A DNA stretch of 40,575 nt from Spirochaetaceae bacterium (GTDB lineage: Bacteria > Spirochaetota > Spirochaetia > DSM-27196 > PWMO01): NCBI GenBank assembly GCA_046540795.1, contig JBKHEN010000003.1, positions 1-40,575 of the forward strand, given 5' to 3'. Below the pieces are notes generated by a model. The model was not told the DNA's origin, did no database searches, and saw nothing but the letters and a program-made list of their open reading frames with translations. The translations under genes and the position numbers were made by a program. This document shows positions 5,968 to 18,620 of this stretch, piece after piece; within the stretch, counting starts at the first letter, position 1; every line of letters begins with the position of its first letter.

Positions 5968-8319
5968 ATGACGGACATCTATAAAGACGGTAATGCCCCG
6001 GTTGCCCGCCGGGTGGCGGATCTCATGAGTCGGATGACCCTCGAAGAAAAGGTTGCGCAGCTGGGAAGCGTGTGGGTCTACGAGCTGCTTACCGACAAAC
6101 GGCCCGACGCGGATAAGCTCTCCGCACACCTCGGCGCGGGCATCGGCCACGTTACCCGCGTCGGGGGCGCTTCGGATGTGGCCCCGAAGGATTACATCGA
6201 CATAGCCAACCGCATCCAGCGCCACCTCACGGAAGAGACCCGTCTCGGTATCCCGGCCGTCGTCCACGAAGAATGCTGTAGCGGGCTCATGACCCGCGGC
6301 GCGACGCTATTTCCCCAAGCCGTCGGGCTTGCCTCGAGCTGGGACCCCGAGCTTATAGAGTCGGTCGCCGGGGTGATCCGGCGCCAGGCGCGGCGAGTGG
6401 GCGCCCATCACGCCCTCGCACCGGTGCTCGACGTCACTCGCGATCCGCGCTGGGGGCGCACCGAAGAGACCTTCGGTGAGGATCCCTACCTTGTGGCCCG
6501 GCTCGGCTGTGCCTACATCGAAGGGCTGCAGGGCACGGACTGGAGCGAGCGGATCATCGCGACGGCGAAGCACTTCGTCGGCTATGGTGCGTCCGAAGGC
6601 GGGATGAACTGGGCACCTCCGCACATACCGCCGCGGGAGCTCCGGGACGTGTATCTGTTTCCCTTCGAGGCCGCCGTCCGAGAGAGCGGAATCCGGTCAG
6701 TGATGAACGCCTACAACGAGCTCGACGGCCTGCCCTGCGGGGCCAACCGGCATTTGCTTACCGAAGTTCTCCGAACGCAGTGGGGCTTCGAGGGTACGGT
6801 CGTCTCGGACTACTTCGCCGTGGAGATGCTGCGCGTCTATCACCTGATCGCCCGGGATAAACAAGAGGCGGCGCGCCTTGCGCTTGAAGCGGGCATCGAC
6901 GTAGAGCTTCCCTCTCGGGACTGCTATGGAGACCCGGTGCTTGAGGCGGCGCGATCGGGGGCGATCCCCATGGAACTGATAGACGCGGCAGTCGAGCGGC
7001 TACTGCGGCAGAAGTTCCTCCTGGGCCTCTTTGAGCGGCCCTACGTGGAGCCGGCCGGCGATTCGGTGCTGTTCGATACCGAGCGTGATCGGGCTATTGC
7101 CCGCCGCGCCGCGACTCGCTCGATCGTGATGCTGAAAAACGAGAACAGGCTTCTGCCCCTGGAGAATGCCTATTCGCGGATTGCCGTCATCGGGCCGAAC
7201 GCCGACAGCACGCGCAACATGATGGGAGACTACGCCTACCCCTGTCATATCGAGGCGATGCAGGACATGAAAACGGCCTTCGAAACGGCGGGGCCCGAGG
7301 ATGAGGTGAGCGTCGACACAGAGCCGGTGCCCGTGGTGACGACAGCCGAGGCGCTGCGTGAGCGTCTTGCCCCGGGGGTTTCCGTCACGACGGCGGAGGG
7401 TTGTGACGTCTCCGATGTCTCCCGCACCGACTTCGAAACCGCCGAGCGCATCGCCCGGGAGAGCGACGTGGCCGTTTGCGTCCTCGGCGACCGCTCGGGA
7501 TTGGTGGAGGGATGCACCTCCGGGGAGGCTCGCGATCGGGCGAGCCTGTTGTTGCCGGGAGCTCAACAGGAGCTGCTCGAGCGGGTCGTCGCCACCGGGA
7601 CCCCTACGGTGCTCGTGCTCGTTTGTGCGCGGCCGATGGACCTCCGCTTCGCCGCGCAGGAGGTGCCGGCGATCCTCCTTGCGTGGCTTCCCGGAGAGGA
7701 GGGAGGGAACGCCGTTGCGGACGTTCTCCTCGGGGAGACCGCTCCCGGCGGCAAGCTTCCCATTTCTTTCCCCCGGAGTGTCGGGCAGGTGCCCGCATAC
7801 CACGGGCACAAGCCTTCCGGCGGCAGGTCACACTGGCTTGGCCGCTACGTTGAGATGGACACGTCGCCCCTGTATCCGTTCGGCTACGGCCTGACCTACG
7901 GCAATGTCGCGGTGGAGCAGACCGCCGTGGACCGGGCGGTTCTGCACCCGGGAGAGCGGCTCACCGTCACGTGCCGGCTTCGCAACACCGGCACGCGCGC
8001 CGGAGAGGAAGTAGTACAGCTCTATGTCCGGGACCTCCACTCCCACGTGACCCGTCCCGTTCGGGAGCTCAAGGGCTTTCGCCGCGTGGGGTTGGCCCCC
8101 GGCGCGGCCGTGGAGGTGGCGATCACCGTCTCAACCTATCAGCTGGGCTTCACGGACGCGGATATGCGACACGTCCTCGAGCCGGGTGAGTTCGAGCTCA
8201 TGATCGCCACCTCCGCCCGGGACATCGTCGCGACTCATACCGTGGAGGTAGTAGGCACGGTGCACGAGATCGCGGCCTGCCGCAGCTACTTCTCCGAGAG
8301 CGTCGAGCGGGAAGCGTGA
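5968..8319 (+). CDS. GH3 glycosidase (beta-xylosidase/beta-glucosidase-like), cytoplasmic, with Fn3-like C-terminus
   Basis: MTLEEKVAQL, RDPRWGRTEETFGEDP, KHF, VVSDY (nucleophile Asp), GEARDR, PLYPFGYGL, EEVVQLY and RPVRELKGF; no signal peptide. Confidence 0.93.
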   Translation: MTDIYKDGNAPVARRVADLMSRMTLEEKVAQLGSVWVYELLTDKRPDADKLSAHLGAGIGHVTRVGGASDVAPKDYIDIANRIQRHLTEETRLGIPAVVHEECCSGLMTRGATLFPQAVGLASSWDPELIESVAGVIRRQARRVGAHHALAPVLDVTRDPRWGRTEETFGEDPYLVARLGCAYIEGLQGTDWSERIIATAKHFVGYGASEGGMNWAPPHIPPRELRDVYLFPFEAAVRESGIRSVMNAYNELDGLPCGANRHLLTEVLRTQWGFEGTVVSDYFAVEMLRVYHLIARDKQEAARLALEAGIDVELPSRDCYGDPVLEAARSGAIPMELIDAAVERLLRQKFLLGLFERPYVEPAGDSVLFDTERDRAIARRAATRSIVMLKNENRLLPLENAYSRIAVIGPNADSTRNMMGDYAYPCHIEAMQDMKTAFETAGPEDEVSVDTEPVPVVTTAEALRERLAPGVSVTTAEGCDVSDVSRTDFETAERIARESDVAVCVLGDRSGLVEGCTSGEARDRASLLLPGAQQELLERVVATGTPTVLVLVCARPMDLRFAAQEVPAILLAWLPGEEGGNAVADVLLGETAPGGKLPISFPRSVGQVPAYHGHKPSGGRSHWLGRYVEMDTSPLYPFGYGLTYGNVAVEQTAVDRAVLHPGERLTVTCRLRNTGTRAGEEVVQLYVRDLHSHVTRPVRELKGFRRVGLAPGAAVEVAITVSTYQLGFTDADMRHVLEPGEFELMIATSARDIVATHTVEVVGTVHEIAACRSYFSESVEREA

Positions 8320-10628
8320 GCCGAGGCGAACGTCGTTCGGTACTCACCCGGGGTAGTCCCCACGTGTTGGCGGAAGATCCGGATGAAGTATACGCTGTTT
8401 GCGTAGCCGACGGTCCGGGCAATATCCTTGACGGCCATGTTCGTCGTTTTCAACAGCTCCGCAGCATGCTCCACCCGCTTGCGGGTAAGGTACTCCACAA
8501 ACCGCACACCGGTCTGCTCGCGAAAGACACGCCCGAGGTAACTTGCGTTCACCCCGAGCCAATCGGCGAACTCCGACAGGTTCGAGGCAAGCTGTCGCGG
8601 ATCCTCGAGTTGGTCGATGAGTATGGCCACATTGGCGTTGGTGCGTCCGCCGTAGGCCTCCGAGAGGGCGTGGGCTGCTCGCCCGACCACGTTGCGATAC
8701 CATGCGGTGATCTCATCCACATCCTTCAGTCGTGTGAGGCGATGGTATTCGCTGAACCCGTGCGGGAATACCGTCTCCCAGGGAACTCCCGCTTCCTCGG
8801 CGGTTTCGATCAGTGCGTTGAGCAGGCGGAAGAAGATTTTCTCGACCTCATAAAACGGCACCCGCCGATTTCGAAGCAAGTTCGTGAGCATCGACTCGAA
8901 CACCTCCTGCGCCTGCTCCGGCTCACCGAGTCGGATGTGCCCGCAAAGCTGCTCCTCCATTTCCTTCGGATAGCCCGGTACGACAACCGTGGCCTCGTGC
9001 ACCTCACGTGCCGAGACGGTATGCGCCGCCGACGTGGCACGGGCGTAGTAGGCGGCGACCCGCGCTTCGTCGAGAGCGTCGGGGACCTCGGGAAGCCGGT
9101 CCACCGCCGCACTTATCCCCACGGATACCTGCAGCTCCGTCAGGACGGATTCGTCGAGCTCCGGGCCCCACCCTGATGCTACCGCAAGCACCTCGCCGCG
9201 GCGGCCGGCAACGAGAAGCACGGGGGTGGCCCCGTCGAAAGCCCGGCGCACCTGCGCTTCGTCGACCGCCTGCTGCGAGCCGACCACCACCAGCACGACC
9301 ATCGGCAACGACATGCGCGGACAGTGGGCCGCGACACACATCTCGGATAGCCGCTCTTCGTCTTCGATGCGACCGGTCAACAGGTCCCAGGCGATCGCGT
9401 CCTCCCGCGCCTGCAATTGTCCCTGAAGCTCCCGCTCCAGCTCGGCCTCCCGGCTCTGCAGGGTACGGAAGCAGTTCTGCACCACGATAAACTCGTCGTC
9501 CGTGGGTTCGGGCTGCCCGTCGTCGGTGGAAATGCGTAGGTTGCCCACCCTTCGCGCTTCCCCCAGGATGGCCCGCACCGGTGCATAGAGCTTGTTCCCG
9601 GAGACGAGGATGAGCACCGCTGCCACTACCGCGGCAACGGCTGCCGCGGTGAGGATCACGTTCCGCAGGACATCGAGCCCGTCGTAGATGCCCCGCCCGT
9701 CGGTCAACGTAACAAACCGCCACCCCAGCCGGCCGGACTCTTTCCAGGTGAGGATCCAGGAGTTCTCCTCGGTGGTGTAGGTGCCGCTCGGTGCCGAGGC
9801 GAACAGCGATTCCATGCGGCTCTGCAGGCGGGTGACCGAATCGCTGCGGGGGTCATAGATCAGAGGGTTTCCCGCAGCGTCAACCACGAGCAACTCTACG
9901 ATGTCGTCACTGTCGGGAAAGGTCATAACCGAGTCGTACAACCGCCGCAGGTCGATTTCGACGATGACGCCCGTGTTTCCTCTCCCGGTCATTTGCACGT
10001 AGGGTAGGATAGCCGGTGTGTTCCGCCATGCCCCCGTCTCGGTCCCCGAGGACTGCGCCCCCGTCGCGGTGGCGTGGGACTCCGAAATCGCTCGTTCGTC
10101 ATGGACGGATTCCCACCTGCCCCGGGGTACGTTCTCCCCGGCGTCCAGCAGGCGGGGAACATAGCTGTCCTCGAGTGCATCGAGCGAACGCTGGCTCCAG
10201 TCTCCGGAAAGCAGCAGGTCCTTCTGCCGGTCGAAGAAGTATACCGAGCGGACGTAAGGATTGGAGATGCGCAGTGTATCGAGGACTTGAAACGCCTTTA
10301 CCAAAGCCTCGCGGTAGCGTGTGATATCGCTCGTGTTGACGGGGAGACGATTGCGAATGGCTTGCTCGATTCGCGCTCCCTCGGAAAACTGTATCAAGTC
10401 GAGGAAATCACCCCGCAAGATTGCCTGCTGAACACTCGATTCGATGGTATCGACGACGAGCTCTACAGTACGAGAGGTCTGCCGAATATGCCGCTGTGCG
10501 GCCCGCTCACGTTCGCCGCTCATTGCCTCTTCGGATTCACGGAACAGAATGGCCGCAAGTATCAGGATGGGGAGGATGGAACAGAGCGCCAGAAGCGCCG
10601 TCAGTCGGACCGAGTATCTGACCCGCAT
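8286..10628 (-). CDS. Membrane-anchored AraC-family regulator (TM, Cache-like sensor, TM, HAMP-like region, AraC HTH)
   Basis: Two TM segments flank an extracytoplasmic domain. C-terminal AraC double HTH (SYLGRVFREQTG...VGYANSVYFIRIFRQHVGTTPGEYR). The 3' end overlaps the GH3 gene by 34 bp. Confidence 0.88.
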   Translation of the reverse strand: MRVRYSVRLTALLALCSILPILILAAILFRESEEAMSGERERAAQRHIRQTSRTVELVVDTIESSVQQAILRGDFLDLIQFSEGARIEQAIRNRLPVNTSDITRYREALVKAFQVLDTLRISNPYVRSVYFFDRQKDLLLSGDWSQRSLDALEDSYVPRLLDAGENVPRGRWESVHDERAISESHATATGAQSSGTETGAWRNTPAILPYVQMTGRGNTGVIVEIDLRRLYDSVMTFPDSDDIVELLVVDAAGNPLIYDPRSDSVTRLQSRMESLFASAPSGTYTTEENSWILTWKESGRLGWRFVTLTDGRGIYDGLDVLRNVILTAAAVAAVVAAVLILVSGNKLYAPVRAILGEARRVGNLRISTDDGQPEPTDDEFIVVQNCFRTLQSREAELERELQGQLQAREDAIAWDLLTGRIEDEERLSEMCVAAHCPRMSLPMVVLVVVGSQQAVDEAQVRRAFDGATPVLLVAGRRGEVLAVASGWGPELDESVLTELQVSVGISAAVDRLPEVPDALDEARVAAYYARATSAAHTVSAREVHEATVVVPGYPKEMEEQLCGHIRLGEPEQAQEVFESMLTNLLRNRRVPFYEVEKIFFRLLNALIETAEEAGVPWETVFPHGFSEYHRLTRLKDVDEITAWYRNVVGRAAHALSEAYGGRTNANVAILIDQLEDPRQLASNLSEFADWLGVNASYLGRVFREQTGVRFVEYLTRKRVEHAAELLKTTNMAVKDIARTVGYANSVYFIRIFRQHVGTTPGEYRTTFASAHASRSTLSEK

Positions 10629-10712
10629 GCCGAGGCTATTGTACGTCCACCGGCCGACCGTGGGCAATCCCGCACCTCGGGAGGGCGGACACGTCCCGGT
10701 TCGGCGGTAGCG

Positions 10713-10919: not shown

Positions 10920-11513
10920 CTAGCCGAACGATTCCACGTAGTCCCGGATACCGGTCAGGAGCATCTGTACCGATAACGTGGCAAGAATCATCCCCATCAG
11001 CCGCTCCATGGCAATGAGAAACCGCTGTCCCAGGCGCCGGCGGAGGATCTCCGCAAAAAGGAGCACCACGAGGGCCGCCACCGATGCGATGACAAGAGCC
11101 AGGAACCACATTCCCATGCGCCCCGGCGCCTGGTTGGAGAAAAGGATCACCGTAGCCATCGCGGAGGGCCCCGCAATGAGCGGAATTGCCAGCGGTACCA
11201 CCAGAGGCTCACCGACGGTGACCTCGGCGCCGCCGTCGCGACCCCAGGGGAAGATCATCCGCACGGCAATCAGGAACAGCACCACGCCCCCGGCGATGCC
11301 GAGGGCGGGCTCGGTGATGTGCAGGGCGCTCAGGATATACTTCCCGAAGAATAAGAACAGCGCAAGCACCACGAAGGCAATGAGCATCTCCCGCAGGATG
11401 ATGGGCTTGCGCCTGCGCTCCTCCACCTGTCTGAGCACCGAGAGGTAGATCGGGATGCTGCCTATGGGATCCATCACGAGAAACAGCGTCACCGTTGCAG
11501 CCAATAAGCTCAC
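10920..11513 (-). CDS. MarC family inner membrane protein
   Basis: LFLVMDPIG, VPLAIPLIAGPSA and ERLMGMIL motifs; SD AAGGAGG upstream of the GTG start. Confidence 0.92.
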   Translation of the reverse strand: MSLLAATVTLFLVMDPIGSIPIYLSVLRQVEERRRKPIILREMLIAFVVLALFLFFGKYILSALHITEPALGIAGGVVLFLIAVRMIFPWGRDGGAEVTVGEPLVVPLAIPLIAGPSAMATVILFSNQAPGRMGMWFLALVIASVAALVVLLFAEILRRRLGQRFLIAMERLMGMILATLSVQMLLTGIRDYVESFG

Positions 11514-11542: not shown

Positions 11543-12814
11543 CTAGGGACGCGTGCGCTTGCGGTCCCGGGGAAACAGCGCCGCCTGCTTCACGTTCTCG
11601 AGCCCGAGGATCTTCTGCGTAAGCCGCTCCAGACCGATGGCGAACCCGCCGTGGGGCGGGCAGCCGTACTTGAAGATCTCCAGGTAGTCGGCCATGCCCT
11701 CCTCGGTCAGCTTGAACTTGGGCAGGGTCTCGCGAAGCATATCGTAGTCATGGATCCGAAGTCCGCCCGTGGTTATCTCCAGGCCCCGGAACAGGAGGTC
11801 GAAGCTCTTCGTCTTCTGCCCGTCGGGATAGGTGTAGAACGGGCGCTTTCGCCGCGGAAAGCCGTAGACGAATACCGCCTCCACGCCGTGTTCCTCGGCG
11901 GCCCAGTCGCAGAGCACCCGCTCGCCCTCGGGATTTATCTCGAAGGCGCGCGTTCCGGTGCGCTCCTTGATGAGCGCCTTCGCCTCGTCGTGGGATATCC
12001 GGGGGGTTGCAGAGAGCGCCTCGGCGGTGGGAAGGCTCCGGCCGTATTCCTCGAGGACATCGGGATGCGTCGCGGAGACCGCCTCGAAGACGGCACCGAG
12101 GATCCGCAGCTCCAGATCCATGAGCTCCGACTCACTCTCGATGAAGCCCATCTCCACGTCGAGGGAAACATACTCGTTGAGGTGGCGCGGCGTGTCGTGC
12201 TTCTCGGCCCGATAGGCGGTGCCGATCTCGAAAACCCGCTCCATACCCGAGGCGACCATCGCCTGCTTGTAGAATTGCGGCGATTGGGCCAGATACACGC
12301 TGTCCTCGAAGTACTGTACCTCGAAGAGGCCGGTCCCACCTTCGGTGCCGGTGCCGATGAGCTTGGAGGATTTGATCTCGGTGAAGCCCTCTCCACGCAT
12401 GACCTCGCCGAAGGCTCGGAGTATCTCCGACTGCACATGGAAAATGCTGCGCACCTTGGGATTGCGAAGCGCCACAAGGCGATGGTCGAGCAACGTCTCG
12501 AGGCCTACCTCGTCGAGGTTGCCGTTTACCGAAAGCGGCAGCTCCGGTTGGGCGGCGGCAAGCAGCTGTGTACGCTCGGCGCGCACCTCGAAGCCGCCGG
12601 GGGCCTTTTCGTTCGCCGCGCAGGTCCCGGTGACCCGGATCACCGACTCCAGCGTCTGCTCGACCTTGCCTTCGTAGACCAACTGCACGATGCCGCTTCG
12701 GTCGCGCAAGAGCACGAATGAGACCGAGCCGAGCTCCCGGATCCGATGAACCCACCCGGCAACCGTAATCGTCGCCCCCTCATGCGAAGCCACCTCCCGT
12801 GCGAGCACTCTCAT
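11543..12814 (-). CDS. aspS: Archaeal-type non-discriminating aspartyl-tRNA(Asp/Asn) synthetase
   Basis: 423 aa with no bacterial GAD insertion; OB fold GWVHRIRELG and EKAPGG; LAQSPQFYKQ; motif 2 YRAEKHDTPRHLNEY; motif 3 PPHGGFAIGLERL; ATGA overlap with the gatB stop. Confidence 0.92.
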   Translation of the reverse strand: MRVLAREVASHEGATITVAGWVHRIRELGSVSFVLLRDRSGIVQLVYEGKVEQTLESVIRVTGTCAANEKAPGGFEVRAERTQLLAAAQPELPLSVNGNLDEVGLETLLDHRLVALRNPKVRSIFHVQSEILRAFGEVMRGEGFTEIKSSKLIGTGTEGGTGLFEVQYFEDSVYLAQSPQFYKQAMVASGMERVFEIGTAYRAEKHDTPRHLNEYVSLDVEMGFIESESELMDLELRILGAVFEAVSATHPDVLEEYGRSLPTAEALSATPRISHDEAKALIKERTGTRAFEINPEGERVLCDWAAEEHGVEAVFVYGFPRRKRPFYTYPDGQKTKSFDLLFRGLEITTGGLRIHDYDMLRETLPKFKLTEEGMADYLEIFKYGCPPHGGFAIGLERLTQKILGLENVKQAALFPRDRKRTRP

Positions 12815-15237
12815 ACCTCTTCCTCCATTCGACGCAACACCTGCTCTTCCGTATCGGCGGTCACGAGCGCCGCCACCAACCGCGTGAAGGCCGACTCGGT
12901 GGTGAGCGTTCCCATGGGAATCGCCCCTTCCTTCCACAGCTCGTGGCTCGTGACGTACTCGGAGAAATCCACCACTCCTTCCTGCTGCGAGGTGCAGAAG
13001 AACCTCACCCCGTGCTCCTGGCCGTGACGGAACGCCCGTTTCAGCGAGTAGGGGGTCTCCCGGAGGCTCGCCGTCCCCGTGTCGTAGAGCTCCAGGATAA
13101 AGTAGCGAATCCCCGCGTTTATGAGAGCCACCAGGCTGTCCCCCTGCATGCCCGGGAACACCTTCGCCACGTACACGCTGCGAATGGCGCGCTCGAAACG
13201 CTCGGTAAGCTCCGCCACGGAGAGCTCCGTGAGGGCGTCGGCGGCCACCGGCCGTCCCCTGAACACCGGCTCTTCGAGATTCCAGTTACGAAAGCGCCCG
13301 AGGCCGGCGATGTCGGTGAACCGCTCGAACTTCAGGTTCACCGGCGAGTAATCGGTTTGGTCGAAGACGACGTGAACCCCCGGATCGTTTCCGGCGGCCT
13401 TGGCAACCGCCGCCTTGAGATTCCCGACCGCCTCGGAGTCCTCCTCAAGCCGGGCTTCCGCCCCCTCCCAGGGCACCGCCGCAGCGGTCAGCACGATGGG
13501 AACCCGGGCGTCGGCAAAGAACCAGTACAACAGGGAGGCGGTGTAGGCAAGGGTGTCCGTGCCGTGAGCGATGACGATGCCCGAGGCGTTTCCCTCGGCA
13601 AGGCGCCCGGCGACGCCGGCGATCAGGGCCGCCCAGTCGGCGGGAGTGATCTCCTCGCTCAAAAATGTCCCGAGCTGCACCTCCTCGAAGCGCAGGTTAT
13701 CCGGGAGGCCAGGGTCGGCGCTGACGATGCTTTCCACGTCGCCGAGCTCGCCGGGGACGATCAACCCGTCCTCCCGGCGCCCGCTGATGGCCCCACCGAA
13801 GGACAGGACATAGATGAAGCTCAGCGCCAGGCGATCGCGAAGCAGCGCATTCACCAGCTGCGGCTCCGCGCGGCCGTTGGTGGCCTTCATCACCTGCCCC
13901 ACGAGGAACCCGAGAGGCTTCGCGTCCCCCGCGCGGATCTGCTCTACCGCCCGCGGGTGCGCGGCGGCCACCTCGTCGACGTAGCCCGAGAGCACGGCGG
14001 AATCCGTTATCTGCTCCCAGCCGTTTTCGGAGATGATGGTCTGCGGATCACGATCGTCCCGAAAGACCGTCCGCAGAGTCTGTTTGGCGATTTTGCCGTG
14101 TATTCGATGCTCGGCAAGGAGCACGAGAAGCGAGGCAAAGCGCTCCGGGGTAAGCGGACTGCCAACAAGGGTGAGCCCTTCCCGATTCAGCTCCTTCTGC
14201 ACGTCACCGGCCAGCCAGGTCGCTGCGGTTCCGGGATCCGCGCCGAGCTTCACGCTCTCCTCGAAGAAATCCGCCACCGGACGTTCCTCGCAGATGAACG
14301 CCGCCTGCGAGGGTGAGAGGTGATACTCCGTCGCCAACCGCTCGCGTCGCGCCACCGGCAACTCAACGAGCCCCTCCTCCACCCGGGAGAGGAACTCCGC
14401 GTCCGCGTGAAACGGCGGCAGATCGGGCTCGGGGAAATACCGGTAGTCGTTCGCGCTCTCCTTGACCCGCATGGTCTCGGTGACGTCCCGGTTTTCGTTC
14501 CACAGTCGGGTTTCCTGCAGGATGTGGCCGTTTCGGTCGAGGATATCCTCCTGCCGGGCGATTTCGTAGGAGAGCGCACGGCGGACGAAACGCGGAGAGT
14601 TCATGTTCTTGATCTCCACCTTCTCGCCGAGCCCCGCACCGCGACGATTGATGCTGACATTGGCGTCGCAGCGCAGCGAGCCCTCCTCCATGTTGCCGTC
14701 GCATACGCCGAGGTAGCGCACGATGCGGCGGAGCTCGTGCAGAAGCACCTCCGCCTCCTCGCCGATCTCCATATCGGGCTCGGTTACGATCTCCAGTAGC
14801 GGCGTGCCCGCACGGTTATAATCAACGAGGGAGATGTCGCCGGCGTGTACCATCTTTCCGGCGTCCTCCTCGAGGTGAACCTCGTGGATGCGCACCCGCT
14901 TCTTCTTGCGGTGAAACTGCAACTCGAGGTGCCCGTTGCGCCCGATGGGACGGCGGTACTGGCTGATCTGGTAGTTCTTGGGCAGATCCGGATAGAAGTA
15001 GTTCTTCCGGTCGAACATCGCCTGCGGGGCGAGATCGCAATTGAGCGCCCGGGCGACAAGGTACCCCATCCGAACGGCTTCCGCGTTGAGCGCGGGCAGG
15101 GTGCCGGGATAGCCCAGGCACACGGGACAGACATTGGTGTTCGGCTCCTCACCGAAGCCGGTGCGGCAGGAGCAGAAGACCTTCGTCGCGGTAAGCAGCT
15201 GTACGTGGATTTCCAGACCGATGAACGACTGATACAT
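12811..15237 (-). CDS. gatB: Asp/Glu-tRNA amidotransferase subunit B fused to a C-terminal asparaginase/GatD-like domain
   Basis: GatB motifs (IGLEIHVQL, RKNYFYPDLPKNYQISQ, HLEEDAGK, RCDANVS, DYRYFPEPDLP, Yqey-like tail GFLVGQVMK) run to ~13830. About 335 aa then follow in frame with SFGGAIS, AHGTDTLAYTAS, PIVLT, KVFPG and CTSQ. Alternative GTG start at 15246. Confidence 0.93.
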   Translation of the reverse strand: MYQSFIGLEIHVQLLTATKVFCSCRTGFGEEPNTNVCPVCLGYPGTLPALNAEAVRMGYLVARALNCDLAPQAMFDRKNYFYPDLPKNYQISQYRRPIGRNGHLELQFHRKKKRVRIHEVHLEEDAGKMVHAGDISLVDYNRAGTPLLEIVTEPDMEIGEEAEVLLHELRRIVRYLGVCDGNMEEGSLRCDANVSINRRGAGLGEKVEIKNMNSPRFVRRALSYEIARQEDILDRNGHILQETRLWNENRDVTETMRVKESANDYRYFPEPDLPPFHADAEFLSRVEEGLVELPVARRERLATEYHLSPSQAAFICEERPVADFFEESVKLGADPGTAATWLAGDVQKELNREGLTLVGSPLTPERFASLLVLLAEHRIHGKIAKQTLRTVFRDDRDPQTIISENGWEQITDSAVLSGYVDEVAAAHPRAVEQIRAGDAKPLGFLVGQVMKATNGRAEPQLVNALLRDRLALSFIYVLSFGGAISGRREDGLIVPGELGDVESIVSADPGLPDNLRFEEVQLGTFLSEEITPADWAALIAGVAGRLAEGNASGIVIAHGTDTLAYTASLLYWFFADARVPIVLTAAAVPWEGAEARLEEDSEAVGNLKAAVAKAAGNDPGVHVVFDQTDYSPVNLKFERFTDIAGLGRFRNWNLEEPVFRGRPVAADALTELSVAELTERFERAIRSVYVAKVFPGMQGDSLVALINAGIRYFILELYDTGTASLRETPYSLKRAFRHGQEHGVRFFCTSQQEGVVDFSEYVTSHELWKEGAIPMGTLTTESAFTRLVAALVTADTEEQVLRRMEEEV

Positions 15238-15242
15238 GTGAA

Positions 15243-16676
15243 TCACGCCCCTCTCTGCGGAAACGGAACATATCCCTCCGGTCGGGCCGGCGGGTGTACG
15301 GCCTCGAGCGCTGAAGCGGCCCGAAAGAGCCGCTCCTCACCGAAGGCGGGCGCCATGAGTTGAACCGCCGTGGGCAGCCCCGCGACAACGCCGGTCGGCA
15401 CCGAGATCGCCGGGACACCCGCGAGGTTGGCCGTGGCGGTGAACTGGTCGGCGAGCTTCTGCTGGAAGGGGTCCATGGCACCTTCACCCCGGGGAAAGGG
15501 TTGCACCGGAAAGACCGGGCTCATGATAAGGTCGACTTCCTCGAACACGCGGGCAAGGTCACGGCGAATGGCGGTACGAATCCTCTGTGCCCGCACGTAA
15601 TACTCGTCCTGAAACCCCGAGCGAAGCACGTACGTTCCCGCAAGGATCCGCAGCTTCACCTCCCGACCGAACCCCTCTTCCCGGCTGCGGCGAACGAGCT
15701 CCTCGGGGTTCTCCGCCTCCTCCGTCCGACGGCCATAGCGCACCCCGTTGAACCGCGCCAGGTTCGCGCTCGCCTCGGCGGTGGCAATGGTGTAGTAGAC
15801 CGGCACCACGTACTCGAAGGTGGGAAGCTCGACTTCCACCACCTCATAGCCCAGCGCCGCGTAGCGCTCTCGCGCCTCCGCGAGAGCCCGTGCCGGCACC
15901 GGATCGGCCTGCCCCGGCGGAAGGACGCCGATGCGGCCCCTCGGGGCGGTTCCGCCGGCGCCTTCCTCCGCGCCGCCTTCCTCCGCGCCGCCGCCCGCGG
16001 CTTCGGGGTACGCCACCGACGACTGATCCCGGGGATCGAGTGCGCGCATCGCGGCAAAGACCTCTCGGCACAGCCCGGCCCTCTCGGCAATCACGCCGAT
16101 CGTCTCGAGGGAGGAGGCATAGGCGACCAGGCCGTAGCGCGAGACGGACCCGTAGGTCGGTTTGAAGCCGAACACGCCGCAGAATGCCGCAGGCTGCCGC
16201 ACCGATCCGCCGGTGTCAGAGCCCAGGGCAAAGGGCACCAGACCTGCGGCCACCGCGGCCGCCGAGCCGCCGCTCGACCCGCCGGGCACCCGCGCGTGGT
16301 CCCAGGGGTTTGCGGTGCGCCCGAGCGCGGAGTTCTCCGTAGAGGAACCCATGCCGAACTCGTCCAGGTTGGTCTTTCCAACCACCACGGCGCCTGCTTC
16401 TTGCAGCCGTTCCACGGCGGTTGCGGTGTAGGGGCTCTCGAGCTCTGCGAGCATCCGCGAACCGCAGGTAAGGGGAAAGCCGGCCGCCGCGATGTTATCC
16501 TTCACTGCAAAAGGCAGGCCTGCCAGGGGACCGTTCCCCCCGGCACGCTTTCTCAATCCCGCCGGATCGAAGGAGAGAAAAGCGCCGAGCTCCTCGTCCA
16601 CCTCATGGACGAACCGCTCATAGGCATCTATTCCGTCGGTGCCGGCTACACTGTTCTTCCAGGCTTCATTATTCAT
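15243..16676 (-). CDS. gatA: Asp/Glu-tRNA amidotransferase subunit A
   Basis: Amidase signature: VKDNI (Lys), GKTNLDEFGMGSS, GGSSGGSAAAV, GSDTGGSVRQPA, ARFNGVRYG. Confidence 0.95.
   Translation of the reverse strand: MNNEAWKNSVAGTDGIDAYERFVHEVDEELGAFLSFDPAGLRKRAGGNGPLAGLPFAVKDNIAAAGFPLTCGSRMLAELESPYTATAVERLQEAGAVVVGKTNLDEFGMGSSTENSALGRTANPWDHARVPGGSSGGSAAAVAAGLVPFALGSDTGGSVRQPAAFCGVFGFKPTYGSVSRYGLVAYASSLETIGVIAERAGLCREVFAAMRALDPRDQSSVAYPEAAGGGAEEGGAEEGAGGTAPRGRIGVLPPGQADPVPARALAEARERYAALGYEVVEVELPTFEYVVPVYYTIATAEASANLARFNGVRYGRRTEEAENPEELVRRSREEGFGREVKLRILAGTYVLRSGFQDEYYVRAQRIRTAIRRDLARVFEEVDLIMSPVFPVQPFPRGEGAMDPFQQKLADQFTATANLAGVPAISVPTGVVAGLPTAVQLMAPAFGEERLFRAASALEAVHPPARPEGYVPFPQRGA
15961..15990. 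repeat. Perfect 15-bp in-frame tandem duplication within gatA
   Basis: CCTTCCTCCGCGCCG x2, encoding the GAEEG-GAEEG low-complexity loop. Confidence 0.9.
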
Positions 16677-16746
16677 GAGAATGCTCCGAGGGGCCTCTAC
16701 AGACCGCCTTCGCGTCCGAATGACCGGGGAAGCGGCCGGAGCCCGA

Positions 16747-17025
16747 CTACAGTACGTTCGGTATGAGGATGAAGCGGTCCTCCACTTCGGGAGCCGCATC
16801 GAGGAGGGCCTCAGGGTCCACCGCGTCGCTCGGCTCATCGGGACGCACGCGATTGTGCTCGAGGTGCACGTGGGTGGTCGGTTCGAGATCGGTCACGTCG
16901 ACCGACTGCATGAGGGAGAAGTATTCCAGGATGCGTGAGACCTCTGCCCCGAGGGAGGTGCGCTCGTCCTCTCCGAGCTCGAGCCGGGCGAGGTCCGCCG
17001 TGACCTCGAGTTCTCGTGTGTCCAT
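16747..17025 (-). CDS. gatC: Asp/Glu-tRNA amidotransferase subunit C
   Basis: 92 aa: ADLARLEL...ILEYFSLMQSVDV..EPT..RPDE..AP...FILIPNVL; directly upstream of gatA. Confidence 0.93.
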   Translation of the reverse strand: MDTRELEVTADLARLELGEDERTSLGAEVSRILEYFSLMQSVDVTDLEPTTHVHLEHNRVRPDEPSDAVDPEALLDAAPEVEDRFILIPNVL

Positions 17026-17034
17026 GATGCGCCG

Positions 17035-17063
17035 ACTATTACATCCCCGACGCTTGGTGTCAA
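17035..17063 (-). promoter_or_regulatory. Sigma70-type promoter of the gat operon
   Basis: TTGACA (17063-17058), 16-17 nt spacer, (T)AATAGT, about 10 nt before the gatC ATG. Confidence 0.5.
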
Positions 17064-17138: not shown

Positions 17139-17166
17139 TTGACTACGTACTGACGGGTGATACAAT
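17139..17166 (+). promoter_or_regulatory. Sigma70-type promoter with extended -10
   Basis: TTGACT, 16 nt spacer, TACAAT preceded by TGn. Confidence 0.6.
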
Positions 17167-17180
17167 TGGACATCACGGAT

Positions 17181-18620
17181 ATGACACAAAATGCCCGCGT
17201 GGCAAAGAAAGAGTTCCCCACCATCCACTTCTACGATCAGGACTTCGTGGATCTGTACAATCAGAGCTGGGCATGGATTCAGGACGGCTGGCACAAGGGG
17301 ACACAGAAGAACGGCCTGCAGAGCCGCTACTTCAACTATCCCGATAATGAGACAATCAACCAGTTCGAGTCCATCATGTCCACCTTCTACCTGGTGTACT
17401 CCAACCGCGTGTTTCCCGCAAACCCGCAGCTCGACAACTTCTACGCCAAGCAGGAAAACTCCGGCGCCATTCGCAGTGACTACTCCGTTCGGGACGGCAA
17501 GGCGGTCCTCTCCCCGGATAACCCCGAAGGGGTAAATCCGCCGCTGTTCTCCTGGGCGGAGTACAACATGTATCACAAGGTGGGAAACAAAAAGCGCATT
17601 CGGGAGGTGCTGCCGATACTCGAGCGCTACTGGGAGTGGCTGGAATCGACGTTCAAGCACGAAAACGGCTTGTATGCGGTGCCCCTTGCAGCGACGCTCA
17701 TGCACAACAGCCCTCGGGAGGAGACGGTCTACCCGGTTGACTTCAACACGCAGCAGGCCGTCAACGCCCTCTACATGTCGGAGCTCGGTGATATCCTCAA
17801 CGACAAGGAAATCGGCTTCAAGTACAAGCGCCTGTACTTCTCCCTGAAGACACGGATCAACAACCTCATGTGGAATGAGGAGGACGGGGTCTACTACGAT
17901 CTCGACGCGGGGGAAGAGCAGGTGCGTCGCAAGACCATTGCCTCATTCTGGCCCCTGCTCGCGGAGCTCCCTAATGAGGCGCGGATGGAGCGACTCCTTG
18001 AGCACCTAAAGGACCCGAACACCTTCGGGCTGGAAAACCCCTTTCCCTCCCTCTCGGCGGATGACCCGGACTTCAGTGAACGGGGCGAGGGTTTTCGCGG
18101 CTCGGTATATCCTCCCTTCACGTTCATGGTCATCAAGGGCCTGGAGAAGTATGCCGCCTATGAGCTCGCCCGGGAGTGCGCCATTCGCCACCTGTACTAT
18201 GTCCTCGACACTCTTCACCCGGAAGGCAAACAGCGGGGGAACATCTGGGAGGCCTACGCGCCCACCCGCGACGGCCCCGCCCGATGGGAAGGAAGAGACG
18301 ACTTCCCGCGGCCGCTGTTCGTCACCTACACCGCGCTCTCTTCGATCGCCCTCATGATAGAAAACGTCATCGGGCTGTTGATCAGCCTCCCGCGTAAGAC
18401 GGTGGACTGGATCGTGCCTACCCTGGAGATCATGGGCGTGGAGAATCTGAGCCTCAAACGCAATATGATCACCATTCTCAGCAACAAGAGCGGCCGCGGC
18501 TGGGAGATCCGCCTGGAGTCGGAGAAGCTCTACTACTTCACCATCGATATTCTACGGGAAAAGAAGAAAACCCTGCCCATCCCCTCGGGCAAGTGCTCCA
18601 TGCTCATCGACAAGCTCTGA
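17181..18620 (+). CDS. MGH1/GH63/trehalase-like (alpha/alpha)6 glycoside hydrolase homologue
   Basis: NPPLFSWAE, MHNSPR, INNLMWNEEDGVYYD, TIASFWPL, FPSLSADDP, FRGSVYPP and IWEAY. The start is ATG 17181 or GTG 17199, because the promoter overlaps the GTG at 17157. Confidence 0.8.
   Translation: MTQNARVAKKEFPTIHFYDQDFVDLYNQSWAWIQDGWHKGTQKNGLQSRYFNYPDNETINQFESIMSTFYLVYSNRVFPANPQLDNFYAKQENSGAIRSDYSVRDGKAVLSPDNPEGVNPPLFSWAEYNMYHKVGNKKRIREVLPILERYWEWLESTFKHENGLYAVPLAATLMHNSPREETVYPVDFNTQQAVNALYMSELGDILNDKEIGFKYKRLYFSLKTRINNLMWNEEDGVYYDLDAGEEQVRRKTIASFWPLLAELPNEARMERLLEHLKDPNTFGLENPFPSLSADDPDFSERGEGFRGSVYPPFTFMVIKGLEKYAAYELARECAIRHLYYVLDTLHPEGKQRGNIWEAYAPTRDGPARWEGRDDFPRPLFVTYTALSSIALMIENVIGLLISLPRKTVDWIVPTLEIMGVENLSLKRNMITILSNKSGRGWEIRLESEKLYYFTIDILREKKKTLPIPSGKCSMLIDKL

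Follow-up and report, generated by a model that had tools for sequence, protein, structure and literature searches.

The amidotransferase GatCAB is a textbook three-subunit enzyme, and to our knowledge only in archaeal GatDE is an asparaginase fold known to work together with a subunit of the GatB type. In Thermus and Deinococcus, as stated in the available excerpt of PMC4206432, a second, archaeal-type aspartyl-tRNA synthetase (AspRS) works with GatCAB to make asparagine on tRNA, and asparaginyl- and glutaminyl-tRNA synthetases (AsnRS and GlnRS) are also present; binding of the archaeal-type AspRS stabilizes GatCAB (excerpts of PMC4206432 and PMC3367201). Here we analyzed a stretch of 40,575 nucleotides (the window) from a Spirochaetaceae bacterium (assembly GCA_046540795.1, contig JBKHEN010000003.1), which carries a gatC-gatA-gatB-aspS operon apparently of this kind. 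Its gatB gene, which we call gatB~ans, continues in frame into a domain of asparaginase type, which has lost the catalytic residues, is conserved among spirochetes under purifying selection and is predicted to form a dimer.

The gene gatB~ans occupies 12811..15246 on the minus strand as one open frame, encoding 811 amino acids (aa) from a GTG at 15246 or 808 aa from an ATG at 15237. The ATG at 15237 is the more likely start rather than the GTG at 15246, and the protein database entry (P0002) has the 808-aa form. Residues 1-475 (13822..15246, minus strand) form the GatB core, with the cradle domain, the helical domain and the YqeY tRNA-binding tail, as assigned by Pfam and NCBIfam. Residues 476-811 (336 aa; 12811..13821 on the minus strand including the stop codon) form the asparaginase-fold domain, which was recognized by Pfam, PDB alignments, AlphaFold2 (AF2) modeling and Foldseek. 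Pfam detected exactly four domains: GatB_N at residues 8-286 (1.2e-115), GatB_Yqey at residues 326-473 (7.8e-44), Asparaginase at residues 478-632 (6e-26, 91.6 bits with a cut-off of 22.5) and Asparaginase_C at residues 691-803 (1.2e-9, 38.6 bits with a cut-off of 34.6).

An earlier reading of the window from its letters alone (the sequence-only reading) had expected these four domains within a bacterial gatCAB operon, with about 335 aa of open frame after the GatB C-terminus. The frame indeed runs on without a stop, and the full architecture is real and conserved, as judged from Pfam, the homologues and their loci. All motifs quoted in that reading are present in the translation, and positions 13552-13566 encode the pentapeptide HGTDT, residues 561-565. 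It also knew of no characterized protein with such an architecture, and likewise no paper on a GatB-asparaginase fusion was found in the full-text collection searched, which is incomplete. The architecture is already in the sequence databases under the plain name GatB; a description of it was not found in this literature.

The GatB core scored above the NCBIfam equivalog cut-offs, with 623.9 bits against 338 for NF004012 and 544.1 bits against 314.8 for TIGR00133 (residues 4-474). A genome search of the assembly gave the fused gene as the sole GatB match. Judged from its sequence, this part is a canonical GatB, the kinase/transamidase subunit of GatCAB. The equivalog-level score and the 141 core residues invariant in 16 type 1 sequences (as distinct from the diverged type 2 proteins described below) suggest that it would have transamidase/kinase activity on Asp-tRNA(Asn). 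At the junction, the full-length AF2 model shows helix 462-473 followed directly by strand 476-483, with a linker of about 2 residues; from Pfam and the model together, the asparaginase fold begins 2-5 residues past the YqeY tail.

The catalytic residues of asparaginases have been lost in the appended domain. In the window protein, Phe483 (13798-13800) stands at the nucleophile-Thr position of the TGGTIA motif, and phmmer alignments to Thermococcus asparaginases in PDB place 'lsFggAis' opposite 'lgTggTia'. The sequence-only reading had picked out YVLSFGGAIS, which is present, and had missed that it is the TGGTIA motif with Phe for the nucleophile Thr and Ala for the second Thr. Among 121 homologues there were 107 hits of this motif and 14 sequences which did not fit the regular expression; the nucleophile position of the 107 hits was F in 69, M in 29, L in 9 and T in 0. 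Column counts were taken from a MAFFT alignment of 99 rows, comprising 27 fused domains, 8 GatD-like rows and 64 standalone rows. The nucleophile column held F in 16 and M in 5 of the type 1 fused domains and M in 5 and A in 1 of type 2, with Thr in 0/27, and Thr was found in 8/8 GatD-like and 52/64 standalone rows. The second Thr of the motif was Ala in 23/27 fused domains and Thr in 8/8 GatD-like and 58/64 standalone rows. The catalytic-Lys column, which is occupied by Phe640 (13327-13329) in the window protein, was F in 26 and L in 1 of the 27 fused domains, and K in 8/8 GatD-like and 50/64 standalone rows. The domain also stayed below the cut-offs for type I L-asparaginase, with 101.1 bits against 260.5 for TIGR00519 and 64.8 bits against 376 for NF006998.

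With Phe483 in place of the nucleophile Thr, and without a conserved Lys in the catalytic-Lys column, the domain is, as far as its residues tell, a pseudo-asparaginase, which keeps the fold and would not hydrolyze Asn or Gln by the canonical mechanism. GatA keeps both the amidase signature GGSSGGS and the lysine of AVKDN by motif reading, so the amide donor site of the complex is presumably the usual one. The suggestion of two amide-handling modules, with the extra domain as a second ammonia source, does not agree with the absence of Thr (0/107 and 0/27) and with the Phe or Leu in the Lys column.

The fusion is widely conserved in spirochetes. A homologue search with residues 470-811 as the query scored 8000 candidates, among which 550 proteins reached E<=1e-5, and 120 were listed. 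The listed homologues were mostly about 800 aa long, nearly all with all four Pfam domains, and their names were only 'GatB', from Spirochaetaceae, Spirochaetia and Alkalispirochaeta americana/sphaeroplastigenens; all named ones belonged to Spirochaetota. On contigs from one genome per species, the fused frame was continuous in 26/26 loci, all spirochaetal. There, gatC-gatA preceded it in 22/26 loci (the other 4 were cut by contig ends), and aspS followed the domain in 25/26 (the remaining one was cut) and additionally in loci L041 and L044. A survey of 401 sampled genomes of the window's class at a match threshold of E<=1e-15, along the line which the sequence-only reading had proposed for Spirochaetia, gave matches in 63 genomes. 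The fusion family was found in 58 of the 401, with 34-84% identity and mostly stop-free frames of 658-1257 aa, the frames of G117, G734 and G697 being shorter or at contig ends. The other 5 matching genomes had ordinary standalone asparaginases only, with 29-31% identity and frames of 342-362 aa.

The domain is kept under strong purifying selection, like the GatB core. In four pairwise comparisons with relatives, the ratio of nonsynonymous to synonymous substitution rates (dN/dS) of the domain was 0.10-0.20, compared with 0.11-0.16 in the GatB core and 0.12-0.14 in AspRS; dS was near saturation, so these values are rough. There were 24 invariant columns among the 27 fused domains.

The distribution of the fusion is patchy, and fused and unfused relatives occur within the same family. 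All three genomes of genus g155, in the family of the window, matched with 69-70% identity over residues 4-474 of GatB only, and genomes G094, G030, G230 and G210 have a GatB of about 475 aa with 61-65% identity and no appended domain. The extra domain is read as an addition made within the spirochetes, which is no requirement of the pathway. No GatB match was obtained with the whole protein as query in two further genomes, G664 of the same genus (96% complete) and G659 of the same family (93% complete); either a gap in the assembly or loss of the entire operon would explain this.

Standalone close relatives of the domain were also looked for and not accepted, as the searches gave only fragments, followed by a gap to ordinary asparaginases and GatD. 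The gap ran from E 1e-32 to 1e-16 in one search, and only 32 representatives reached 1e-30 in another. These fragments begin either within the YqeY tail or at the Met of an SMGGAIS motif, and most are from contigs of 1-3 kb; a few other short forms (P0274, P0275, P0330, P0341 and P0141) are on long contigs and might be split genes.

The AF2 model of the domain had a predicted local distance difference test score (pLDDT) of 83.7 and a predicted template modeling score (pTM) of 0.87. The best Foldseek matches were type I asparaginases of Pyrococcus/Thermococcus (4q0m, 5ot0 and 1wls) with template modeling (TM) scores of 0.74-0.77, followed by AnsA of Yersinia and E. coli and guinea-pig asparaginase, and GatD appeared at ranks 11 (1zq1) and 47. 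A quick maximum-likelihood tree was made from the 99 rows, for which every second standalone representative had been omitted. In this tree, where branches are long, the fused domains formed one clade with a Shimodaira-Hasegawa-like approximate likelihood ratio test (SH-aLRT) support of 100 and a stem of 1.18 changes per site, and fragment P0159 fell within this clade. GatD formed its own clade, also with SH-aLRT 100, among the standalone enzymes. Constraining the fused domains and GatD together cost 6.08 log-likelihood units and was not rejected by the approximately unbiased (AU) test (p-AU 0.365), with the same reservation for the quick method and the long branches. So far as these alignments tell, the domain forms a distinct clade on a long stem within the type I asparaginase fold; it is not nested in GatD, and a sister relation to GatD is not rejected.

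The N-terminal domain of GatD (PF18195), which GatD-like database proteins carry, had no Pfam match in the fused protein, and the GatD equivalog cut-offs were missed, with 99.7 bits against 324 for gatD_arch TIGR02153 and 97.9 bits against 310 for NF003217. The sequence-only reading had called the protein a GatD-like or GatDE-like chimera. What remains of this name is the shared type I asparaginase fold; the N-terminal GatD domain is lacking, the score is far below the cut-off and the domain has a clade of its own. The tree which that reading had proposed separates the two in its free form and leaves the sister relation admissible. The GatDE-like pairing itself does not apply, since the domain's partner is a canonical GatB and not GatE.

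A prediction of two copies of the domain gave an interaction score from aligned errors (ipSAE) of 0.91 in three runs, and the best of 3 controls gave 0.01. The runs agreed in at least 94% of the contacts, and the partner pLDDT was at least 87. In the calibration, 20 of 30 solved homo-pairs reached this mark, as did 1 of 23 single chains, which is a rough guide as our own 27-row alignment was used here. The interface is formed by active-site segments of the N-subdomain (residues 53-60, 88-94 and 165-169 in domain numbering) against the C-subdomain segments 213-259 and 278-293 of the other copy, which corresponds to the classical intimate asparaginase dimer. The family-specific invariant motifs LSEE, DTGTA..RE and CTSQQEG.VDFS are located in interface segments. 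Loops 723-733 and 757-767 are highly conserved and lie within the predicted interface, and their pLDDT below 50 in the full-length monomer model is as expected for loops ordered only in the dimer. The dimerizing scaffold, which the sequence-only reading had listed among its ideas, thus gains support from a predicted homodimer.

The operon consists of four closely packed genes on the minus strand, in the order gatC-gatA-gatB~ans-aspS, as seen from the list of open reading frames (ORFs) and Pfam. The gatC gene (16747..17025, minus strand, 92 aa) matched Pfam GatC at 1e-16. The gatA gene (15243..16838, minus strand) is a maximal ORF of 531 aa which matched Pfam Amidase at 2.3e-126, and the Met at 16676 is its more likely start; its stop TGA at 15245-15243 overlaps the GTG at 15246 of gatB~ans. 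The aspS gene (11543..12814, minus strand) encodes an archaeal-type non-discriminating AspRS of 423 aa, which scored 508.2 bits with NF003483 (cut-off 353), the family of aspartate--tRNA(Asn) ligase, and matched Pfam tRNA-synt_2 and an OB fold. The start codon of aspS (ATG, 12814-12812) and the stop codon of gatB~ans (TGA, 12813-12811) overlap as ATGA, and the two genes are translationally coupled. Just upstream of gatC, a consensus scan gave a sigma-70-like promoter match, TTGACA-17-AATAGT, at 17035..17063 on the minus strand, where 3 sites were found in the region with 0.9 expected; this match is likely the operon start. Inside the operon, the same scan gave no promoter-like or terminator-like site on the minus strand, and Rfam gave 0 matches across the whole window, a leader element included.

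The GatA amidase domain contains a low-complexity Gly/Glu/Ala insert of 22 residues (AAGGGAEEGG...TAPRG) at 15936-16001 on the minus strand. Divergent from gatC lies a gene for an MGH1-like/trehalase-like glycoside hydrolase (17157-18620, plus strand; Pfam PF22422, 7.9e-33). The same neighbor occurs with 61-89% identity in 30 related loci, among them all six loci of the orphan type 2 genes described below. From this similarity the hydrolase would mark a shared ancestral locus. Downstream of the operon there are an ORF of 793 aa (8286-10667, minus strand) and one of 197 aa (10920-11513, minus strand) which is hydrophobic and membrane-like. The C-terminus of the 793-aa ORF has the look of an AraC-type helix-turn-helix, judged by eye only.

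The window assembly also encodes AsnRS (618.9 bits, contig C38), GlnRS (705.8 bits, C16) and, in a 608-aa frame on C29, a further AspRS-type match which we read as the bacterial-type AspRS. AsnA scored 391.4 bits against a cut-off of 292.8 (C48), and no AsnB over the cut-off was found in this assembly, which is 81% complete. A tRNA-Asn(GTT) was identified on C44 by ARAGORN, with U1-A72 in the acceptor stem as judged by eye; this pair is the one required or recognized by bacterial GatCAB, according to the available excerpt of PMC2811023. Because the genome also has AsnRS, GlnRS and the bacterial-type AspRS, the operon is best read, by analogy, as a module of the Thermus/Deinococcus type which would make asparagine on tRNA-Asn. 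GatCAB is not needed for Gln-tRNA, since the genome has GlnRS, and for Asn it is apparently not strictly needed, with AsnA, AsnRS and the tRNA-dependent route being redundant. The set of GatCAB, archaeal-type non-discriminating AspRS, AsnRS and GlnRS was also found in fused G380, G332 and G679 and in unfused G210 and G094, the latter two with AsnRS, GlnRS and a non-discriminating-type aspS beside gatB. G380 and G332, both fused and complete on a single contig, carry AsnRS and GlnRS; in neither of them was AsnA, or AsnB above its cut-off, found. Three AsnB-type matches were seen in fused G679, and unfused G210 has AsnA. We looked for a link between the fusion and missing Asn synthetases and saw no pattern in five genomes (the window assembly, G380, G332, G679 and G210), which are too few for a claim.

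Six loci carry a second form of the fused protein, here called orphan type 2. They belong to families f4 and f10 and lie at L040 5995-8370 (minus strand), L042 6136-8535 (plus), L043 627-3008 (minus), L045 6077-8620 (plus), L046 6175-8418 (minus) and L047 5895-8201 (plus). Their GatB part is diverged (31-41% identity to the window core) and is followed by a domain without the nucleophile Thr (39-50% identity). No gatC, gatA or aspS was found within about 6 kb of the six genes. In at least 5 of the 6 orphans, 62 of the 141 residues which are invariant in the 16 type 1 cores are altered, including H14R, E152R, D194N and the DYRYFPEPD stretch, and the Pfam GatB_N score drops to 108-134 bits. The type 2 protein looks like a double pseudoenzyme, a putatively dead GatB joined with a dead asparaginase.

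The orphans nest inside the fused clade in the quick tree. The glycoside hydrolase which flanks gatC in the window also flanks the orphan genes (61-64% identity), so an orphan stands at the apparent ancestral site of the operon. In G323, G329 and G338 an ordinary gatA-gatB pair is present elsewhere in the genome besides the orphan, and in G317 (one contig, 98% complete, searched except for 16 kb) and G305 (99% complete) we found no gatA at E<=1e-30 and no other gatB. These observations suggest that the fused module has a role able to outlive the amidotransferase. Beside the glycoside hydrolase, three type 2 loci also have genes for a Ppx/GppA phosphatase and a polyphosphate kinase (L042 933-4572, minus strand; L045 629-4399, minus strand; L040 9988-13772, plus strand), which were identified by Pfam on L042 only and judged by ORF size and N-terminal sequence on L045 and L040.

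What was directly observed (the architecture and how it is conserved, the lost catalytic residues and the setting in the operon), together with the predicted fold and dimer, leads us to favor, as somewhat better than an even chance, a non-catalytic module which pairs two GatB tails, and hence two GatCAB, in a form matching the AspRS dimer. In such a complex the last helix of the YqeY tail would run straight into the complete type I asparaginase fold, and ammonia would still be supplied by the intact GatA. The retained surface of the intimate dimer would let the domain pair two GatB tails into (GatCAB)2, and the two-fold symmetry of (GatCAB)2 would match the dimeric non-discriminating AspRS from the coupled next gene. 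The former active-site pocket, at the predicted dimer interface and lined by family-invariant residues, may also bind a small ligand. The scaffold role, this stoichiometry and any ligand binding are what we infer from these data.

Several points weigh against a pairing module of this kind. The dimer is a predicted one, and its score may reflect the model's memory of solved asparaginase and GatD dimers, that is, likeness and not binding. The pTM of the full-length model was 0.49, which gives no information on the position of the domain relative to GatB. Dimerization is not needed for the pathway, because close relatives keep gatB-aspS (G094 and G210) or GatB (g155) without the domain, and the AsnA of the window assembly means that the tRNA route is not the only route to Asn. 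The domain also persists in the orphan paralogues, away from gatC, gatA and aspS, which points to a function independent of the transamidosome. The loss of catalysis has its own doubtful details: the register of the Lys column is uncertain by 1-3 residues, as MAFFT aligns F640 and phmmer the non-conserved R642, and a mostly conserved Lys/Arg stands at K639 (K164 in domain numbering), 1-3 residues before the column, so a shifted Lys is possible. HGTDT is kept in 120/121 homologues, and the 27 aligned domains retain Thr563 in 24 cases, Asp564 in 26 and Ser530 in all.

This retention of HGTDT, together with the strong purifying selection, is what an active second glutaminase/asparaginase would predict, which would release ammonia by a non-canonical mechanism and feed it to the transamidase site of GatB. 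GatD offers a precedent, as an asparaginase-type ammonia donor paired with a GatB paralogue (excerpt of PMC2330236). However, Thr never occupies the nucleophile position (0/107 and 0/27) and the Lys column is Phe or Leu, some type 2 members lose even HGTDT and read HGSNT, HGKDT or HGADT, GatA is intact, and the domain would sit on a mobile tail, away from the entrance of a GatA-type ammonia channel. An active second ammonia source is unlikely for these reasons, and we hold the non-canonical version of it to be highly improbable. The chance is practically nil that the fusion is an artefact of metagenome assembly, in which gatB and an independent asparaginase gene were merged through a missed stop or a frameshift. 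Such an error could be imagined in the window assembly, which is 81% complete and in 217 contigs, but the same uninterrupted frame occurs in the single-contig genomes G380, G332, G679, G549, G317 and G323 and in the named isolates Alkalispirochaeta americana and A. sphaeroplastigenens, and no convincing standalone member of the fused clade was seen. The sequence-only reading had itself pointed to a stop or frameshift at the junction in close relatives as what would speak against it, and the frame was continuous in all 26 independent loci.

Two other explanations give the domain a different task and are both compatible with a dimeric scaffold. The pocket might be a ligand sensor, which binds Asn (the end product) or Asp without hydrolysis and allosterically tunes tRNA-dependent Asn synthesis through the tRNA-binding tail, to which it is rigidly attached. 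We regard this as a tentative possibility. It is consistent with the operon context of asparagine formation on tRNA, with the linker of only about 2 residues to the tRNA-binding tail, and with the retention of Ser530, Thr563 and Asp564, which we take to be residues for the substrate alpha-amino and alpha-carboxyl groups after the presumed roles of Ser58, Thr89, Asp90 and Lys162 in E. coli AnsB. Further, E531, E532, D722, G724, T725, A726, R729, E730, C751 to E756, D760 and F761 are invariant and located in segments of the predicted inter-subunit pocket, and a type I relative, E. coli AnsA, has an allosteric Asn site according to the title of PDB 2p2d. On the other hand, bulky hydrophobic residues at the nucleophile and Lys positions may fill the pocket, and the presence of the domain was unlinked to a lack of AsnA/AsnB in the five genomes checked, too few for a claim. 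Pseudoenzyme sensors of the GCN2 type can be taken as a comparison. We speculate, with considerable doubt, that the dead pocket might be a product sensor for Asn/Asp which switches tRNA-dependent Asn synthesis on or off, and that the orphan type 2 proteins might be derived, free-standing signaling proteins linked to tRNA or amino acids; if the product sensor were true, this would be the first tRNA-dependent amidotransferase with a built-in device for amino-acid feedback. Alternatively, the domain could be a docking platform which binds the archaeal-type non-discriminating AspRS and keeps a protein-tethered transamidosome together, in place of the contacts that a scaffold tRNA or a GAD domain provides elsewhere. 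The position of aspS directly after the domain in 25/26 loci plus L041 and L044, and the ATGA overlap described above, would fit with docking. A weak further hint is P0353 (270 aa, on a 55-kb metagenome contig, with PF17763 and PF01336, the AspRS N-terminal OB fold), which reads from the C-terminus of the domain into the N-terminus of AspRS. This protein has the appearance of a fragment from a faulty assembly, with frameshifts suggested by its unusual start and end, and we do not count it as a true triple fusion. But gatB and aspS are also adjacent without the domain in G094 and G210, and no aspS lies within roughly 6 kb of the orphan type 2 genes, which retain the domain; we consider docking rather unlikely.

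In a widespread bacterial lineage, GatB itself thus carries a disarmed asparaginase fold which is kept under strong selection. A domain which dimerizes GatCAB would give the particle making Asn-tRNA(Asn) a new architecture, and one which docks AspRS or senses Asn/Asp would provide this particle with a new point of control; in both cases, tRNA-dependent amino-acid synthesis would offer a clear example of an enzyme fold turned to non-catalytic use. The orphans in Treponemataceae-like genomes, two of them with no GatA found, would mean that the fused module can live on its own. There is also a consequence for annotation, as the proteins are named plain 'GatB' and their fragments 'asparaginase' or 'asparaginase domain-containing protein', which invites wrong metabolic inferences.

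Compared with known systems, the domain is closest to the type I asparaginases (4q0m, 5ot0 and 1wls; AnsA 2p2d), which gave the best match in sequence (7e-20) and in fold (E 1.9e-18, TM 0.75-0.77). It shares with them the layout of two subdomains, HGTDT and the intimate dimer, the last being predicted here. Those enzymes, however, are standalone proteins of about 330 aa with the Thr of TGGTIA and the catalytic Lys, whereas the fused domain has 23-24% identity to them and hydrophobic residues at both catalytic positions. With GatD (1zq1 and 2d6f) it shares the fold (Foldseek TMq, 0.71-0.73; phmmer 6e-17 and 1e-14) and the association with a GatB-family protein. GatD forms a homodimer that carries two GatE (PMC2330236), and a homodimer is also predicted for the fused domain. 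In contrast, GatD is a separate polypeptide with the extra N-terminal domain PF18195, is active, with Thr and Lys in 8/8 GatD-like rows, and replaces GatA; the fused domain is attached C-terminally to a true GatB, has neither Thr nor Lys and stands alongside GatA.

The pathway is most similar to the module of Thermus thermophilus and Deinococcus radiodurans, with the same AsnRS, GlnRS, bacterial-type AspRS, archaeal-type non-discriminating AspRS and GatCAB, and with U1-A72 in tRNA-Asn. It differs in that gatCAB and aspS form one operon here with the extra domain between them, whereas the available excerpts on Thermus and Deinococcus do not describe their GatB with an appended domain; the window assembly also has AsnA, and a tRNA-only supply of Asn would hold for the fused genomes G380 and G332, where no AsnA and no AsnB above the cut-off was detected. 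Fusion of an amidotransferase piece to a partner of the pathway is also seen in the GlnRS of D. radiodurans with a YqeY tail (NF011291; excerpt of PMC2811023) and in the bifunctional AspRS-GatC protein (NF009460). Those two proteins join functional parts, whereas in gatB~ans an inactivated enzyme fold, one without a known role in the pathway, has been joined to GatB.

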